Positions 1 to 5,486 of a stretch of 5,486 bases of DNA are shown here, piece by piece; position 1 is the stretch's first letter; each line of letters begins with the position of its first letter. The stretch comes from Enterobacteria phage ID18, in the sequence record NC_007856.1. One strand, 5' to 3'. Below the pieces are notes generated by a model. That model was not told where the DNA came from, made no database searches, and saw only the letters and a list, made by a program, of their open reading frames with translations. The position numbers and the translations under genes were made by a program.

Positions 1-3
1 TGT

Positions 4-30
4 TTGACTAACTATCTCTTCACTTAACAT
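4..30 (+). promoter_or_regulatory. Candidate promoter pA (gene A promoter) in the H-A intergenic region
   Basis: -35-like TTGACT at 4-9; weak -10-like TAACAT at 25-30 with a 15-nt spacer. Position matches where phiX174 carries a TTGACA-containing promoter just upstream of the gene A hairpin. The -10 is poor, so the call is tentative. Confidence 0.3.
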
Positions 31-56
31 GCCTCCAAATCAACGGAGGCTTTTCT
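31..56 (+). terminator. GC-rich hairpin (GCCTCC / 8-nt loop / GGAGGC) followed by a TTTTCT run; candidate intrinsic terminator that also contains the gene A Shine-Dalgarno
   Basis: Seen directly: 31-36 GCCTCC pairs perfectly with 45-50 GGAGGC (6-bp stem, loop 37-44), followed by TTTTCT at 51-56. As I recall it, phiX174 has a near-identical GCCTCCAAATCTTGGAGGC-TTTTTT element immediately before the A start codon. Confidence 0.5.
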
Positions 57-58
57 AC

Positions 59-1729
59 ATGCAACAACACTTAACCGCTTCGGACTTCTACCGCAAACCA
101 ATAATCGACGCTATCAAACCTCTTGTCGAAACTGCTGGTATGTCTGTGCTAACTCAATCTCCTAACCTCCGTATCTGGAAACAGTGCAACACTCGCGTAA
201 AACTGCTGGAAGAAATTCTAAATCATTACACTAACGGTATTCGCCGTGATGATAATGGTGACTTCTTTCTCAACCCTGAATGCCAACTCGCCACTACAAT
301 TGCTTATCGTGCTCACAAAAAGGGCCATAACCCTCGCTTTAAACAATACCCTGAGTCATTCACTCTGGACGATATTATTACTGGCAAACCAATTCCTCAG
401 ACTGCCCCTTCTGAGCTTCAACTTACTGATGAAATCGGTGAGGATTACCGCCTTACTGTACTCTCCATAATCGAAGAGTTAGACGAATGCTACAACGTGC
501 TCGGACAACTTGATATTAATAACACTATAGACCACAAACCTATCGGTAACGCCAAATGGGACTTAATGTATGAAAAACCTGTCTATAAACACTGGTATGA
601 ACTGGTATCAAAACGACCCCTTAAATCAATCAGAGAGGACTACAACTATGCAAAGGCTAAGGGTACTAAAGATGAGTGCTCGAAAATCCTTGAGGAATCC
701 ACCATGAAATCCCGCCGTGGCTTTACCGTTCAGAGATTGATGAATGCTATGCGTACTGCCCACACTGATGGCTGGTATGTTGTATTCGATACTCTCACCT
801 TAGCTGATGATCGTATTAAGGACTTCTATGCTAACCCCAATGCTCTTCGTGACTATTTCCGTGATATTGGCCGTATGGTTCTCACTGCCGAGGGTCGTTC
901 GGTCCATGATTCATCTTCGGACTGCTATCAGTACTTTTGTGTGCCTGAGTATGGCACCCAGCATGGCCGTTTACACTTTCACGCAGTGCATCTTATGCGC
1001 ACACTTCCTTTGGGTTCTCTCGACCCTAACTTTGGTAAGCTGGTGCGTACTAATCGGCAAATAAATAGCTTGCAAAACACATGGCCTTATGGTTACTCTA
1101 TGCCCATCGCAGTCCGGTATTCTCAGGATGCTTTCTCTCGCGCTGGATGGCTCTGGCCTGTCGATACAAAGGGTGAACCCCTTAAATCCACCTCGTATAT
1201 GGCTGTAGGCTTCTACGTTGCTAAATACGTTAATAAAAAATCTGATGTTGACATAGCCGCAAAAGGCTTAGGGAATCAAAAATGGAACGCTACATTAAAA
1301 ACGCAGATGGCTCTTTTACCAAAGAAACTATTTCGAATTCGAATGAGCCGCAACTTCGGGATGAAACTACTCCCAATGACGACGCTGACCGCGGAGTGTT
1401 TAATCCAACTGACCCAAGTGGGTTACGACGTGACCCCGTTCAACAACATCTTGAAGCAGAACGCCAAGAAAGAGCTACGATTGAGGCTGGCAAAGCAATC
1501 TGTAGCCGACGTTTTGGAGGCGCAACCTGTGACGACCAATCTGCTAAAATTCATGCGCAATTTGACCCGAACAATCGGAGCGTCCAGCCTACAGAGTTTT
1601 ATCGCTTCAATGACGCAGAAATTAGCAAATACGGATATTTCTGATGAAACTAAAAACTACGTTACTAATGCAGGAATTGCTGTTGCTGACTTACGACTTA
1701 AATCGAAGTGGACTGCTGGTGGAAAATGA
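59..1729 (+). CDS. A: Replication initiation protein A (rolling-circle HUH endonuclease; viral-strand nickase/ligase)
   Basis: Long ORF (frame 2) strongly similar along its C-terminal two thirds to phiX174 protein A as recalled. HUH motif HFHAVH is encoded at about 974-991 and the catalytic YVAKY tyrosines at 1214-1228. Start placed at ATG 59, which has a GGAGG Shine-Dalgarno at 45-49 with 9-nt spacing; the track's ATG at 29 has none. Stop TGA at 1727-1729. Confidence 0.85.
506..535 (+). other. Viral (+) strand origin of rolling-circle replication (30-nt ori core, protein A nick site)
   Basis: Sequence CAACTTGATATTAATAACACTATAGACCAC is identical to the conserved phiX174/G4 origin 30-mer as recalled. 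Protein A is expected to nick between G512 and A513. It lies inside gene A, as in all phiX-like phages. Confidence 0.85.
704..1729 (+). CDS. A*: Protein A* (in-frame internal initiation product of gene A; 341 aa)
   Basis: In-frame ATG at 704 encoding MKSRRGF..., the same N-terminus as phiX174 A*, preceded by GAGG at 692-695. The predicted length of 341 aa equals the phiX174 A* length as recalled. Expression is inferred by homology. Confidence 0.65.
1070..1099 (+). promoter_or_regulatory. Candidate promoter pB (inside gene A, upstream of gene B)
   Basis: -35-like TTGCAA at 1070-1075 and a weak -10-like TACTCT at 1094-1099 (18-nt spacer), about 180 nt upstream of the B start. Position and sequence resemble the phiX174 region TTGCAAAATACGTGGCCTTATGGTTACAGT. 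Weak -10, so low confidence. Confidence 0.3.
1282..1644 (+). CDS. B: Internal scaffolding protein B (120 aa), encoded entirely within gene A in a different frame
   Basis: 120-aa ORF in frame 1 nested in A. The product has the conserved [20 protein letters not shown] and EFYRF...GYF C-terminal motifs of phiX174 protein B. Stop TGA at 1642-1644. Confidence 0.9.
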
Positions 1730-1814
1730 AGAACTTCAATCTCAACTTAAAGAACTCGAGGGCGTCTTACTTCGCAACCTTTCGCCATCATCTCAACGTG
1801 GTAGCAAAGACTGA
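1644..1814 (+). CDS. K: Protein K (56 aa; small membrane-associated protein modulating burst size)
   Basis: Not in the ORF track (short). ATG at 1644-1646 overlaps the B stop (TGATG). Hand translation gives [56 protein letters not shown] (56 aa), closely matching phiX174 K (QELLLLVYELNRSGLLAENE). Frame 0, overlapping the end of A and the start of C; stop TGA at 1812-1814. Confidence 0.8.
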
Positions 1815-1995
1815 CGCGCTTGATGAAGAAAAATGGCTCAATATGATGGGCGCTCTTCTTAAGGACTGGTTCCGCTATGAACAACATTTCGTACATGGCA
1901 AAGAATCAATGCTTGACATTCTAAATGAACGTGGCCTATTATCCACCTTGCCAAATGGCTTAACTTACAAAGGAATCAAAAATGAAAGCAAATGA
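1726..1995 (+). CDS. C: Protein C (89 aa; switches stage II to stage III DNA synthesis and assists ssDNA packaging)
   Basis: ATG at 1726-1728 overlaps the A stop TGA at 1727-1729 (ATGA). The product [21 protein letters not shown]...[13 protein letters not shown]...[13 protein letters not shown] matches phiX174 protein C. The track ORF 1708..1995 begins at an upstream GTG and is probably over-extended. Confidence 0.85.
1913..1942 (+). promoter_or_regulatory. Candidate promoter pD (inside gene C, driving D-E-J-F-G-H)
   Basis: Perfect -35 TTGACA at 1913-1918 and -10 TATTAT at 1937-1942 with an 18-nt spacer, about 40 nt upstream of the D start. The homologous phiX174 sequence GCTTGACATTTTAAAAGAGCGTGGATTACTATC is the known pD location. 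Confidence 0.55.
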
Positions 1996-2443
1996 GAACG
2001 CAGTAGCCTTTCAAACCGCTATTGCCTCCATCAAACTTATTCAGGCATCTTCTGTTCTTGACCTGACTGAGGACGATTTCGAATTCTTAACTCGTGACCG
2101 TGTATGGATTGCAACTGACCGCTCCCGTGCTCGCCGCGCTATTGAGGCTTGCGTTTATGGAACTCTGGACTTTGTGGGATACCCTCGCTTTCCTGCTCCT
2201 ATTGAGTTTATTGCTGCCGTCATTGCTTATTATGTTCATCCCGTTAACATTCAAACGGCATGTCTTATTATGGAAGGCGCTGAATTCACCGAAAACATCA
2301 TTAATGGTGTCGATGCCCCGGTTAAAGCCGCTGAACTCTTCGCGTTTACCTTGCGTGTACGCGCCGGAAACACTGAGCTTATTACTTACGCAGAAAACAA
2401 TGCGCGTGAAAAACTGCGCGCTCAAGGAGTGATGGATGTCTAA
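1982..2443 (+). CDS. D: External scaffolding protein D (153 aa)
   Basis: ORF with AAGGA at 1970-1974 about 7 nt before the ATG. The product is nearly collinear with phiX174 protein D (FQTAIASIKLIQAS..VLDLTEDDF, YGTLDFVGYPRFPAP, IAAVIAYYVHPVNIQTACLIMEGAEFTENIINGV). The start overlaps the C stop at 1993-1995. Confidence 0.92.
   Translation: MKANENAVAFQTAIASIKLIQASSVLDLTEDDFEFLTRDRVWIATDRSRARRAIEACVYGTLDFVGYPRFPAPIEFIAAVIAYYVHPVNIQTACLIMEGAEFTENIINGVDAPVKAAELFAFTLRVRAGNTELITYAENNAREKLRAQGVMDV
2157..2432 (+). CDS. E: Lysis protein E (91 aa; single-gene lysis, MraY inhibitor), nested in gene D in the +1 frame
   Basis: ATG at 2157 with GAGG at 2144-2147. The product MELWTLWDTLAFLLLLSLLLPSLLIMFIP... 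has the hydrophobic N-terminal transmembrane segment with the conserved Pro21 and the ...RLPCVYA... C-terminal region of phiX174 E. The track ORF starts at an upstream GTG (2094) and is over-extended. Confidence 0.85.
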   Translation: MELWTLWDTLAFLLLLSLLLPSLLIMFIPLTFKRHVLLWKALNSPKTSLMVSMPRLKPLNSSRLPCVYAPETLSLLLTQKTMRVKNCALKE

Positions 2444-2516
2444 AAAATCTATTCGCCGCTCTGGTGGCAAATCTAAAGGTGCTCGCCTCTGGTATGTTGG
2501 CGGCACACAATTCTAA
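2436..2516 (+). CDS. J: DNA-binding/packaging protein J (26 aa; small basic core protein)
   Basis: Not in the ORF track (short). AGGAG at 2425-2429, 6 nt before ATG 2436. Hand translation gives MSKKSIRRSGGKSKGARLWYVGGTQF (26 aa), highly basic with the C-terminus GARLWYVGG.QF shared with phiX174 J. The short length is G4-like (phiX174 J is 38 aa). Stop TAA at 2514-2516. Confidence 0.8.
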   Translation: MSKKSIRRSGGKSKGARLWYVGGTQF

Positions 2517-2522
2517 TCTCTA

Positions 2523-2544
2523 AGGGGCTTCGGCCCCTCTATTT
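2523..2544 (+). terminator. J-F intergenic hairpin AGGGGC-TTCG-GCCCCT followed by CTATTT; candidate intrinsic terminator / mRNA-stabilising stem-loop
   Basis: Perfect 6-bp GC-rich stem (2523-2528 with 2533-2538) closed by a TTCG (UUCG-type) tetraloop, followed by a T-containing tail. The analogous position in phiX174 carries the post-J terminator. Confidence 0.55.
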
Positions 2545-2555
2545 AAGGATACAAA

Positions 2556-3836
2556 ATGTCTAACGTACAAACTTCCGCTGAACGTATTCCGCATGACCTC
2601 TCACATCTGGTATTCGAAGCTGGTAAAATCGGACGCCTTAAAACTATCTCCTGGACTCCTGTTGTCGCTGGTGATTCTTACGAAACTGAAATGGTAGGCG
2701 CTATTCGTCTTTCTCCTCTCCGTCGTGGTCTGGCTGTCGACTCTCGCGTCGACGTCTTTACTTTCTATATCCCTCATCGTCATGTCTATGGTCAACAATG
2801 GATTGACTTTATGAAGACTGGCGTTAACGCTACTCCTCTGGCTCCGGTAACTTGTTCCTCTGGCTGGGATTCTGCTGCCTATCTTGGCACTATCCCGTCA
2901 ACTAATTTGAAGGTTCCTAAATTCCTTCATCAATCTTATCTCAATATTTACAACAACTACTTTAAGCCGCCGTGGTCTAATGACCTCACCTATGCTAACC
3001 CATCTAATATGCCCGCTGAGGATTACAAATGGGGCGTTCGTGTCGCTAACTTAAAATCTATCTGGACCGCGCCCCTTCCTCCTGATTCATTAACTAAGCA
3101 GGATATGACTACTGGCGCTACCACTATCGATATTATGGGCCTACAAGCTGCCTATGCTAAACTCCACACTGAACAGGAACGTGACTATTTCATGACTCGC
3201 TACCGCGATATTATGAAAGACTTTGGCGGTCACACCTCCTACGACGGTGATAACCGTCCTCTGCTCCTGATGCGCTCTGAATTTTGGGCCTCTGGCTATG
3301 ACGTCGACGGTACTGACCAAACTTCATTGGGTCAGTTCTCTGGTCGCGTCCAACAAACCTTTAATCATAAAGTGCCTCGCTTCTATGTTCCTGAGCATGG
3401 CGTAATTATGACTTTATCTGTTACTCGCTTCCCTCCTACTCACGAAATGGAAATGCACTATCTCGTCGGTAAGGAATCTCTGACTTATACTGACATTGCC
3501 TGTGACCCTGCTCTTATGGCTAACCTGCCTCCGCGTGAAATTGAGGTAAAAGACCTCTTTCACTCTGCTGGTACTGGTAAATTCAAAATTGCCGAAGGTC
3601 AATGGTATCGTACTCAGCCTGACCGCGTTGCCTTCCCTTATAACGCTCTTGACGGCTTCCCTTTCTATTCTGAACTGCCGTCTAATGATATTCTCGAACG
3701 TGTACTTGTTCGAACTGATAACTATGATGAAATCTTCCAGTCTATGCAACTTGCACACTGGAACATGCAAACTAAATTTAACACTACTGTATATCGTCAT
3801 ATGCCTACCACTCGTGATGGCATCATGACGTCATAA
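2556..3836 (+). CDS. F: Major capsid protein F (426 aa)
   Basis: AAGGA at 2545-2549, 6 nt before the ATG. The product is collinear with phiX174 F along its full length (MSN.QT.AER.PHDLSHL, RLSPLRRGLA.DS, IDIMGLQAAYA.LHT.QERDYFM.RY, GTDQTSLGQFSGRVQQT, LPPREI, FKIAEGQWYR, TTRD.IMTS). Confidence 0.95.
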   Translation: MSNVQTSAERIPHDLSHLVFEAGKIGRLKTISWTPVVAGDSYETEMVGAIRLSPLRRGLAVDSRVDVFTFYIPHRHVYGQQWIDFMKTGVNATPLAPVTCSSGWDSAAYLGTIPSTNLKVPKFLHQSYLNIYNNYFKPPWSNDLTYANPSNMPAEDYKWGVRVANLKSIWTAPLPPDSLTKQDMTTGATTIDIMGLQAAYAKLHTEQERDYFMTRYRDIMKDFGGHTSYDGDNRPLLLMRSEFWASGYDVDGTDQTSLGQFSGRVQQTFNHKVPRFYVPEHGVIMTLSVTRFPPTHEMEMHYLVGKESLTYTDIACDPALMANLPPREIEVKDLFHSAGTGKFKIAEGQWYRTQPDRVAFPYNALDGFPFYSELPSNDILERVLVRTDNYDEIFQSMQLAHWNMQTKFNTTVYRHMPTTRDGIMTS

Positions 3837-3845
3837 AACAAAACG

Positions 3846-3881
3846 TTGAACGGGTACAAATTTTAATTTGTGCCTGTTCAA
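3846..3881 (+). other. F-G intergenic imperfect hairpin (about 13-bp stem including G-T/G-U wobble pairs, AT-rich loop)
   Basis: 3846-3858 (TTGAACGGGTACA) pairs with 3869-3881 (TGTGCCTGTTCAA) around the loop AATTTTAATT. It sits in the 92-nt F-G untranslated region, which in phiX-like phages holds the post-F terminator and complementary-strand priming signals. Confidence 0.4.
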
Positions 3882-3928
3882 GGTTGAACAAGCGAAGCGC
3901 GTTAGCTAACTTACTTAAGGAAATTCTC

Positions 3929-4462
3929 ATGTTTCAAACTTATCTCTCTAAACATAATTCTCCGTTAACTTCTCTGTCTATTACTGCTACAAAAACACCT
4001 GCGGCTGCTGCTCCGATTATTTCTACACCGGAGCTTAGCCGCTCTACTATTTTCGCTGGCTTAACTCTGACTGCTGCCACTACTCATTCTGGTGTCGCTC
4101 ATGTCGTTCGTATTGACGAAACCAATCCTACTGACAATCAGGTCTTATCGGTCGCCGCTTCTTTATCTGGCGTACCGTCTGATGCTATTGCTATTGCTAT
4201 TCGCTTTGAGGTCGCTGACGGTACCGTCCCTACTGCTCTCCCTGCTCTCTACTCTGCTTATCCGGTGGAATTCTTCACTTCTGGCGCTGCTCTGTCTTGT
4301 AAGGATGCCGTATCTATTCCGACGCATCCTGTTACTGCTGGTAATGATGTATATGCTGGTATTCTTATCTGGTCCAAATCTTGGTCCGCTGGTGTCGTCT
4401 CCGGCCTCTTATCTGTTAATCAGGTAAACCGTGAAACTACCGTACTCCAACCTCTTAAATAA
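3929..4462 (+). CDS. G: Major spike protein G (177 aa)
   Basis: ATG at 3929 preceded by TAAGGA at 3916-3921. The product begins MFQTYLSKHNS (phiX174 G begins MFQTFISRHNS) and ends ...SLNQVNRETTVLQPLK (phiX174 ...SLNQVIKEIICLQPLK). The track ORF starts at an upstream TTG (3884) and is over-extended. Confidence 0.88.
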   Translation: MFQTYLSKHNSPLTSLSITATKTPAAAAPIISTPELSRSTIFAGLTLTAATTHSGVAHVVRIDETNPTDNQVLSVAASLSGVPSDAIAIAIRFEVADGTVPTALPALYSAYPVEFFTSGAALSCKDAVSIPTHPVTAGNDVYAGILIWSKSWSAGVVSGLLSVNQVNRETTVLQPLK

Positions 4463-4472
4463 GGTCTAATCT

Positions 4473-5486
4473 ATGTTCGGTGCAATCGCTGGCGGTATCG
4501 CCTCCTCTCTCGCTGGTGGACTCCTGAACAAAGCATTCGGGGGCGGTTCTTCCGCTCCCCAATCTGGCGTTCAAGGTAATGTCCTCGCTACTGACAATAA
4601 TGTAATCGGTGCTAATGATGCTGGTATCAAATCCGCTATTCAGGGTTCTAATCCTCCCAATGGTCAACAAGCTGCTCCCAATGCTATATCGGGCGTTCTT
4701 GCCGATACTGGCAAAGACGCCCTATCTTCAATCACTGGCGCTGGCGTTAATAAACTTATGGAAAAAATCGGACTCTCTAAAGATGCTGCTGCTAAAGGTA
4801 AGGATACGAAAGATTATCTTGCTTCTGCGTTCCCCGAACTCAACCCGTGGGAACGTGCTGGCGCTGGTGCTTCTTCTGCTGGAATGGTTGATGCGGGATT
4901 CCAAAACCAAAAGGAATTAACTCGCATGCAGCTTGACAATCAAAAAGAAATCGCTAAGATGCAAAACGACACTCAAAAGGATATCGCTGGTATCCAGTCT
5001 GTTACTTCTCGGCAAAATACTAAGGACTCTGTGTATGCTCAAAACGAAATGCTCCAATACAACCAAAAAGAATCTATGTCACGCGTTGGCGCTATTCTCG
5101 AAAACACAAGCCTCACCAAACAACAACAAACTTCTGAAATTATGCGGCAAATGCTTACTCAGGCTCAAACCTCAGGTCAACACTTTACAAATGACCAAAT
5201 CCAAGAACTTACTCGAAAGGTCGGCGCTGATATTGATGCTGTTCGTGCTAACACTGAACGTACACATGTAGAAACGGACCGCTCTAAGCAGGAGGTCCAA
5301 AACTCTCGTTACGCTTCCTCACAAGTCGGTAAAACCGCCAAGGATGTATCAAATGTCATTAGTGACGCATCTTCTGGTATTGTTGATTATTTTCGTGGCG
5401 TTGATAAAGCTGTCGCGGATACTTGGAACAATTATTTCAAAGATGGCAAATCGGATGGGATAAGCTCAAACCATCGTACCAAATAA
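4473..5486 (+). CDS. H: Minor spike / DNA pilot protein H (337 aa)
   Basis: AAGG at 4461-4464, 8 nt before the ATG. The product is collinear with phiX174 H ([132 protein letters not shown]). Stop TAA is the last three bases of the window. Confidence 0.93.

Follow-up and report, generated by a model that had tools for sequence, protein, structure and literature searches.

A predicted hairpin between genes H and A of phage ID18 and its relation to the phiX174 pA-T_H composite

In bacteriophage phiX174, the intergenic region separating genes H and A contains an intrinsic terminator, T_H, and the promoter of gene A, pA, is directly followed by the stem of this terminator (Logel & Jaschke). According to RNA-seq data, T_H blocks about 70% of transcription, and the net change across pA-T_H is 0.29-fold (Logel & Jaschke). 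The stem-loop holds both the transcription start site and the ribosome-binding site (RBS) (Logel & Jaschke, legend of Fig. S2, adapted from Godson et al., 1978). The -35 (3927-3932) and -10 hexamers of pA have been validated by mutagenesis, and the 3′ stem of T_H overlaps the RBS, GGAGG at 3969-3973 (2026 complete-mutagenesis preprint). Detrimental stem mutations amounted to 63% in the 3′ stem versus 13% in the 5′ stem, an asymmetry ascribed by the authors to the presence of the RBS in the 3′ stem (2026 complete-mutagenesis preprint). Since so few mutations of the 5′ stem are detrimental, loss of the pairing costs little in terms of laboratory fitness. In the RefSeq record of phiX174, the start of transcription is annotated at nt 3962. 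The sequence of this region reads TTTCAT, GCCTCC, AAATCTTGGAGGC, TTTTTT and ATG in succession, and nt 3962 corresponds to the first A past the 5′ arm. A text search of the literature with the phiX174 start-site sequence AAATCTTGG returned only unrelated papers.

Concerning the H/A hairpin of G4, Logel and Jaschke cite a comparison of this phage with phiX174 that Godson and colleagues reportedly made in 1978. The RefSeq record of G4 carries neither a start-site nor a terminator annotation. More generally, hairpins that act on translation by sequestering a Shine-Dalgarno (SD) sequence exist, for instance in the RNA phage MS2.

The window considered here, that is the whole stretch of DNA that was analysed, is the complete circular genome of ID18 (5486 nt), a G4-like microvirus of the genus Gequatrovirus. 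Over its full length, it is 98.4% identical to coliphage WA14; identity to EMCL318 is 97.5%, and positions 1-3226 match an IMG/VR isolate record exactly. The list of open reading frames and the WA14 annotation give the gene order A, A*, B, K, C, D, E, J, F, G, H. The ID18 record begins at the first base past the stop codon of gene H (TAA, 5484-5486). Positions 1-58 therefore represent the H-A intergenic region, and its upstream context must be taken across the circular junction, the hairpin being located 30 nt downstream of the H stop. Gene A starts at 59 in the WA14 record and at the equivalent ATG in G4. The features of the region are as follows.

4-9, plus strand: putative -35 hexamer of pA, TTGACT, aligned with the TTGACA/TTGACT of G4, ID2-like phages, PJNS002 and phiX174
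25-30, plus strand: putative -10 hexamer of pA, TAACAT, adjoining the 5′ arm; function assigned by homology
31-36, plus strand: 5′ arm of the hairpin, GCCTCC, preceded by the -10 hexamer and followed by the predicted start site; invariant in alignment A3
37-44, plus strand: loop of the hairpin, AAATCAAC, 8 nt; from homology to phiX174, pA is predicted to start at A37
45-50, plus strand: 3′ arm of the hairpin, GGAGGC, holding the SD GGAGG (45-49); invariant columns in alignment A3
51-56, plus strand: T-run, TTTTCT, candidate terminator U-tract and part of the spacer between SD and ATG, from comparison with the tails of homologues
59-1729, plus strand: gene A, replication initiator, start codon ATG at 59-61 (WA14 and G4 annotation, list of open reading frames)
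4473-5486, plus strand: gene H, minor spike/pilot protein (list of open reading frames; annotated as H 4473-5486 in WA14)

From sequence comparison, the H-A hairpin of ID18 is the orthologue of the pA-T_H composite of phiX174. The first-pass annotation presented it as a lead. The element is in fact already annotated in the phage family, where the composite of pA, T_H and RBS is known from phiX174 and G4, and we consider the ID18 hairpin as ordinary because its phiX174 counterpart has long been described. Both elements lie between H and A. They share the succession of -35, -10, stem, loop, SD-holding 3′ arm, T-run and ATG, the core arms GCCTCC/GGAGGC, and a loop opening with AAATC. However, the stem is made of 6 bp in ID18 versus 8 bp in phiX174, the loop has 8 nt versus 3 nt, and the T-run is TTTTCT instead of TTTTTT. 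Moreover, 9 nt separate the SD from the ATG in ID18 versus 7 nt in phiX174, the promoter spacer has 15 nt versus 17 nt, and the extended -10 motif TATG, present in phiX174, is absent. In G4, also a Gequatrovirus, the H/A hairpin has identical arms, an 8-nt loop and gene A starting at 59; in G4, however, the pA spacer is longer (18 nt), the -10 hexamer (TAATAT) is better, and the tail, with TTTTC directly before the ATG, is shorter.

Two broader classes of elements are also to be compared with the ID18 locus. Like the Rho-independent terminators of E. coli, the hairpin associates a GC-rich stem-loop with an immediate U-run, on the sense strand and downstream of a coding region. Unlike generic E. 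coli terminators, it has a short stem and a short, interrupted U-tract. In addition, this U-tract doubles as the spacer between SD and ATG, and a promoter start is predicted inside the element. As in the MS2 type of SD-sequestering hairpins, the SD is entirely engaged in a stable local stem-loop. In ID18, however, the occluding arm would be absent from the transcript issued from the gene's own promoter. Occlusion would then discriminate among RNA isoforms, instead of being a response to a ligand, to a protein or to upstream translation.

In ID18, positions 31-56 read GCCTCC, AAATCAAC, GGAGGC and TTTTCT. The arms form six perfect Watson-Crick pairs, five of which are G-C, and enclose a loop of 8 nt. 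The hairpin RNA has a calculated minimum free energy of -11.7 kcal/mol, and its structure accounts for 85-93% of the ensemble. Compared with dinucleotide shuffles, z ranges from -4.2 to -4.9, and none of 200 shuffled sequences folds as well. The hairpin is retained in folding contexts of 90 and 150 nt, as well as after addition of 120 nt of gene H across the circular junction. It is the first-listed terminator-like match in the consensus scan. Using a strict search (six or more perfect pairs, five or more of them G-C, a loop of 3-8 nt and a T-rich tail) over the whole ID18 genome, the H-A hairpin alone was retrieved on the plus strand, and no hairpin of this kind was found on the minus strand. 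The mean number expected by chance is 0.009 per strand, as estimated from 2000 first-order Markov genomes. Comparison of the whole genome with the covariance models of Rfam 15 gave no match at E <= 1.

The U-tract, TTTTCTAC, comprises four U before its interruption. It passes the criterion of the scan (at least 5 T in 8), and its tail score is 3.5, versus 4.7 for the TTTTTT of phiX174, indicating a weaker U-tract in ID18. The hairpin is placed past the end of the transcription unit, out of the reach of the terminating ribosome. The view of the first-pass annotation, in which these bases form a terminator-like hairpin facing transcripts that leave H, agrees with the 6-bp stem and with the orthology to T_H, the T-run being short and interrupted; the RNA folding that had been proposed as a check also agrees. 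The 3′ arm had further been equated with the SD of gene A. The GGAGG sequence (45-49) indeed lies inside the arm and is separated from the ATG at 59 by nine bases (50-58), an arrangement slightly unlike the one implied.

Two other hairpins are observed in the ID18 genome. The J-F gap holds a GGGGCUUCGGCCCC tetraloop hairpin with a U-rich tail (2523-2536), and a long perfect hairpin is present in the F-G gap, at about 3846-3881. Their positions are like those of T_J and T_F in phiX174 and that of the complementary-strand origin annotated between F and G in G4. Unlike the H-A hairpin, neither of them overlaps the SD of the next gene.

The promoter of gene A deserves separate consideration. Its -10 hexamer ends at the base preceding the stem, whether it reads TAACAT as in ID18, TAATAT as in G4, TATCAT as in ID2-like phages, TTTCAT as in phiX174 or TATATT as in alpha3-like phages. 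The pA spacer has 15 nt in ID18 and WA14, and 18 nt in EMCL318 and G4. Alignment A3 shows that the spacer of ID18 and WA14, within positions 4-30 (4-33 in EMCL318 and G4), lacks three nucleotides, which read AAT in EMCL318. The consensus scan calls pA both in EMCL318 (TTGACT-18-TAACAT) and in G4 (TTGACT-18-TAATAT). It leaves pA uncalled in ID18 because a spacer of 16-18 nt is needed, the ID18 spacer having 15 nt. Given this short spacer, pA may be weak in the ID18 lineage, and the start site could shift. Because the promoter ends exactly where the stem begins, pA transcripts of ID18 should begin near A37, inside the hairpin and past its 5′ arm.

An in-frame ATG at 29 was also envisaged as the start of gene A. 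It was rejected, as no SD precedes it and as it stands upstream of the predicted start of transcription. This triplet lies where the -10 hexamer meets the 5′ arm, and it is absent in PJNS002, Lilleto, L007 (a metagenomic relative) and the alpha3-like phages. The same ATG (29-31) makes the ORF tool begin the gene A reading frame at 29. The junction ATG is also in frame in G4, in ID2-like phages and in phiX174; in WA11, with its seven T's, it is not. That the ATG at 29-31 of ID18 is in frame is probably a coincidence. On the minus strand, a promoter-like site extends from 129 to 101 (TCGACA, 17-nt spacer, GATTAT). It is located inside the 5′ end of gene A, points toward the H-A region and is found in EMCL318 too. 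An antisense promoter near pA has been reported in phiX174 (Logel & Jaschke).

Two classes of RNA have to be distinguished when the accessibility of the gene A RBS is considered. In phiX174, the annotated start lies directly past the 5′ arm, and the -10 hexamer abuts this arm in every clade. For these reasons, RNA initiated at pA would be devoid of the 5′ arm, and occlusion of the SD would therefore be confined to RNA reading through from H. In ID18 read-through RNA, the unpaired probability of bases 46-50 of the 3′ arm is about 0 and the SD is paired with a probability of about 1. In RNA starting from A37, the same bases are unpaired with probabilities of 0.3-0.7 as far as short RNAs are considered. 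Likewise, the predicted cost of opening the RBS is 9.4-13 kcal/mol in the read-through RNA of ID18 and 8.8-11.7 kcal/mol in that of phiX174. It is 3.5-7.4 kcal/mol in ID18 RNA starting at A37 and 1.8-4.7 kcal/mol in phiX174 RNA starting at nt 3962. Folding of longer RNAs from A37 gives the SD other, weaker partners; the open state must therefore be regarded as relative and not absolute.

One potential partner is CCTCCGT, at 166-172 of ID18, within the Asn-Leu-Arg codons of gene A. It is a perfect 7-nt complement of ACGGAGG (43-49), that is the SD plus two bases, and RNAfold pairs 166-172 with 43-49 in an RNA spanning 37-200. Every G4-like genome examined, PJNS002 among them, has retained this heptamer, which phiX-like genomes and L007 lack. 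Its conservation could result from coding constraint or chance.

The proposal that comes next to the one we favor, which is that of the first-pass annotation, is that the hairpin forms on the mRNA of gene A itself and keeps translation of A low in a general manner, through sequestration of the SD. We regard it as unlikely. The 3′ arm does contain the whole SD, any RNA carrying both arms pairs the SD with a probability of about 1, and A and A* are needed at low levels only, their overexpression being harmful (Logel & Jaschke). However, such a general throttling conflicts with the start of phiX174 pA transcripts at 3962, past the 5′ arm, and with the -10 hexamer abutting this arm in all clades. 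It also fits poorly with the phiX174 mutagenesis, in which mutations of the 5′ stem are rarely detrimental. The same considerations bear on the suggestion of the first-pass annotation that one structure would both terminate upstream transcription and hold A translation low. The first part is sustained by the termination measured for the phiX174 orthologue. The second part has to be restricted, pA RNA being predicted to lack the 5′ arm and occlusion to occur on read-through RNA only.

Comparative data were gathered from the regions upstream of gene A in G4-like phages (ID18, WA14, EMCL318, G4, WA3, ID12, an ID2-like genome and ID204), in the PJNS002/Lilleto lineage, in seven phiX-like isolates, in about 15 alpha3-like genomes and in L007, whose gpA identity is 52%. 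In all groups, the order is the same: -35, -10, 6-nt GC-rich arm, A-rich loop, SD arm, T-run and ATG. Alignment A2 contains 19 sequences, 18 of them distinct, which cover the G4-, phiX- and alpha3-like groups plus L007. Over these 18 sequences, the six core pairs are standard pairs in 108 of 108 cells. Three pairs are invariant, one varies only to U-G, and two have changed on both sides. The two-sided changes, U-A to C-G and C-G to U-A, convert GCCTCC/GGAGGC into GCCCTC/GAGGGC in the alpha3-like phages. Changes on a single side, which concern three sequences, give U-G wobbles only. As such wobbles pair on the plus sense only, they fit a role at the RNA level. Not one of 500 shuffled controls reaches the observed pairing or covariation score, and sliding one partner by 1-3 columns leaves 34-66% of the cells paired only. 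RNAalifold independently returns the same 6 pairs.

Alignments A2 and A3 also show that the arms and the first T's are invariant and that the flanks can be aligned, while loop and flanks diverge freely, with loops ranging from 3 to 13 nt; extra stem pairs are found in the phiX- and alpha3-like clades. Conservation with phiX174 in spite of diverging surroundings, as announced by the first-pass annotation, is thereby observed, and the search for compensatory mutations it recommended gave the two swapped pairs just described. Pairing has thus been kept through compensatory changes in the relatives of ID18, and the independent events may be few. In particular, both compensatory pairs may have arisen in one ancient event, when the alpha3-like clade diverged. 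The G4-like phages have a weaker U-tract than phiX174, and, next to an intact stem, the T-run is degenerate in PJNS002 (TTTCTC) and nearly lost in Lilleto (TCTTTC). Considering these tails together with the short U-tract of ID18, termination is possibly weaker than in phiX174. In the PJNS002/Lilleto lineage, which comprises Salmonella and E. coli phages, conservation is stronger in the hairpin than in the tail of the terminator.

These alignments make it possible to evaluate a less demanding explanation, which we hold to be quite improbable. The complementarity of the arms would be a by-product, the 5′ arm being kept as the GC stretch from -10 to start and the 3′ arm as the SD, without any function of their pairing. 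Each arm would then have an independent reason to be conserved. The tolerance of the phiX174 5′ stem to mutation goes in the same direction, as does the natural loss of the 5′ arm in one alpha3-like genome, L015. This explanation is nevertheless difficult to reconcile with two pairs that changed on both sides and still pair, the other, single-side changes being U-G wobbles. It also leaves aside the T-run that follows the hairpin throughout, although degenerate in Lilleto and PJNS002, and the drop in transcription measured across the phiX174 element.

The genome just mentioned, L015 (IMG/VR 2974698941, 6039 nt), carries a clean deletion of 29 nt at about 700-730. The deletion takes with it the spacer of the promoter, its -10 hexamer and the 5′ arm located before gene A. 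The SD and the T-run are retained, the sequence left being GAGGAC, a T-run and the ATG. L015 represents a naturally occurring knock-out of the A-proximal hairpin, in which the copy located after H is intact. In the alpha3-like phages (alpha3 itself, L009, at 1-70 and 717-764; L010, L012-L024), the architecture indeed occurs twice, in an H-A interval of about 760 nt. The first copy, right after the H stop, forms a stronger hairpin, GAGACUCUUGCUUC...GAAGUAGGAGUCUU, of about -20 kcal/mol. It has TTGACA upstream and an SD in its 3′ arm, followed by a T-run and by the ATG of a conserved reading frame. The product of this frame begins with MKPAHRL and has 47 aa in alpha3 and 121 aa in ID21. The second copy directly precedes gene A.

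Finally, a role of the hairpin mainly at the DNA level, in the single-stranded genome, appears very improbable. The hairpin would then be part of the H-A 'reduction sequence', for which binding of a host factor present in limiting amounts has been proposed, in connection with complementary-strand synthesis or with inhibition of superinfection. In favor of such a role, infecting phage is inhibited by a cloned segment of phiX174 (3705-4200) that spans the intergenic region, H-A substitutions were found in chemostats in excess of expectation and a replication role was raised about them (Brown et al., 2013), and the hairpin is also predicted in DNA (-5.9 kcal/mol, z = -3.1). However, the inhibiting fragment is 495 nt long and the determinants mapped in recent work are residues of protein H, and two of the chemostat substitutions fall in the predicted terminator according to Brown et al. 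themselves. Moreover, G4 has its complementary-strand origin in the F-G region, and G-T wobbles with an obligatory T-run and SD better suit an RNA.

Taking these data as a whole, we favor a model in which the 58 nt separating H from A are the orthologue of pA-T_H in the G4 clade, where terminator, promoter and RBS would be packed together so as to insulate gene A. We assign to it a probability of roughly 0.8. In this model, RNA coming from the upstream promoters pB and pD and leaving H would encounter the hairpin (31-50) and its U-run, acting as a leaky intrinsic terminator, as judged from orthology. The hairpin would probably stabilize the resulting 3′ ends as well. Termination after H would reset transcription before gene A, and the promoter of gene A (-35 at 4-9, -10 at 25-30) would start new transcripts at about A37, between the arms, with the 3′ arm serving as the SD of the gene. 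Read-through RNA would have both arms and a closed RBS, while promoter-A RNA, lacking the 5′ arm, would have a much more open one. Gene A would in this way be insulated twice, first by termination of most of the read-through and second by closure of the RBS on the remainder. According to the present analysis, the own mRNA of gene A would stay translatable and unthrottled. Isoform-specific occlusion of the RBS was not found stated in the phiX174-family literature searched. For ID18, we infer the start site, the efficiency of termination and the class-specific translational occlusion from these comparisons and calculations.

A broader idea may be put forward, on a tentative basis and with less than even confidence. 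A 'split hairpin' of this kind might be a conserved device of the Bullavirinae, yielding two RNA isoforms from one sequence and insulating the toxic, cis-acting A from strong late promoters. It would have been maintained by compensatory change and duplicated in the alpha3-like phages, and, in the G4 clade, the anti-SD CCTCCGT at 166-172 might close promoter-A RNA again.

As a discovery, the ID18 hairpin carries little weight. It is a feature of phiX174 and G4 dating from the textbook era, recently quantified by RNA-seq and complete mutagenesis, and only the count of covariation across clades and the model of isoform-specific occlusion bring mildly new angles. The mechanism is nonetheless corrected with respect to the one first proposed, in that transcription would start between the arms and occlusion of the RBS would be possible only on read-through RNA. 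The alignment across clades, the natural deletion of the 5′ arm and the variant with a short promoter spacer may serve as guides to how microviruses keep protein A scarce.
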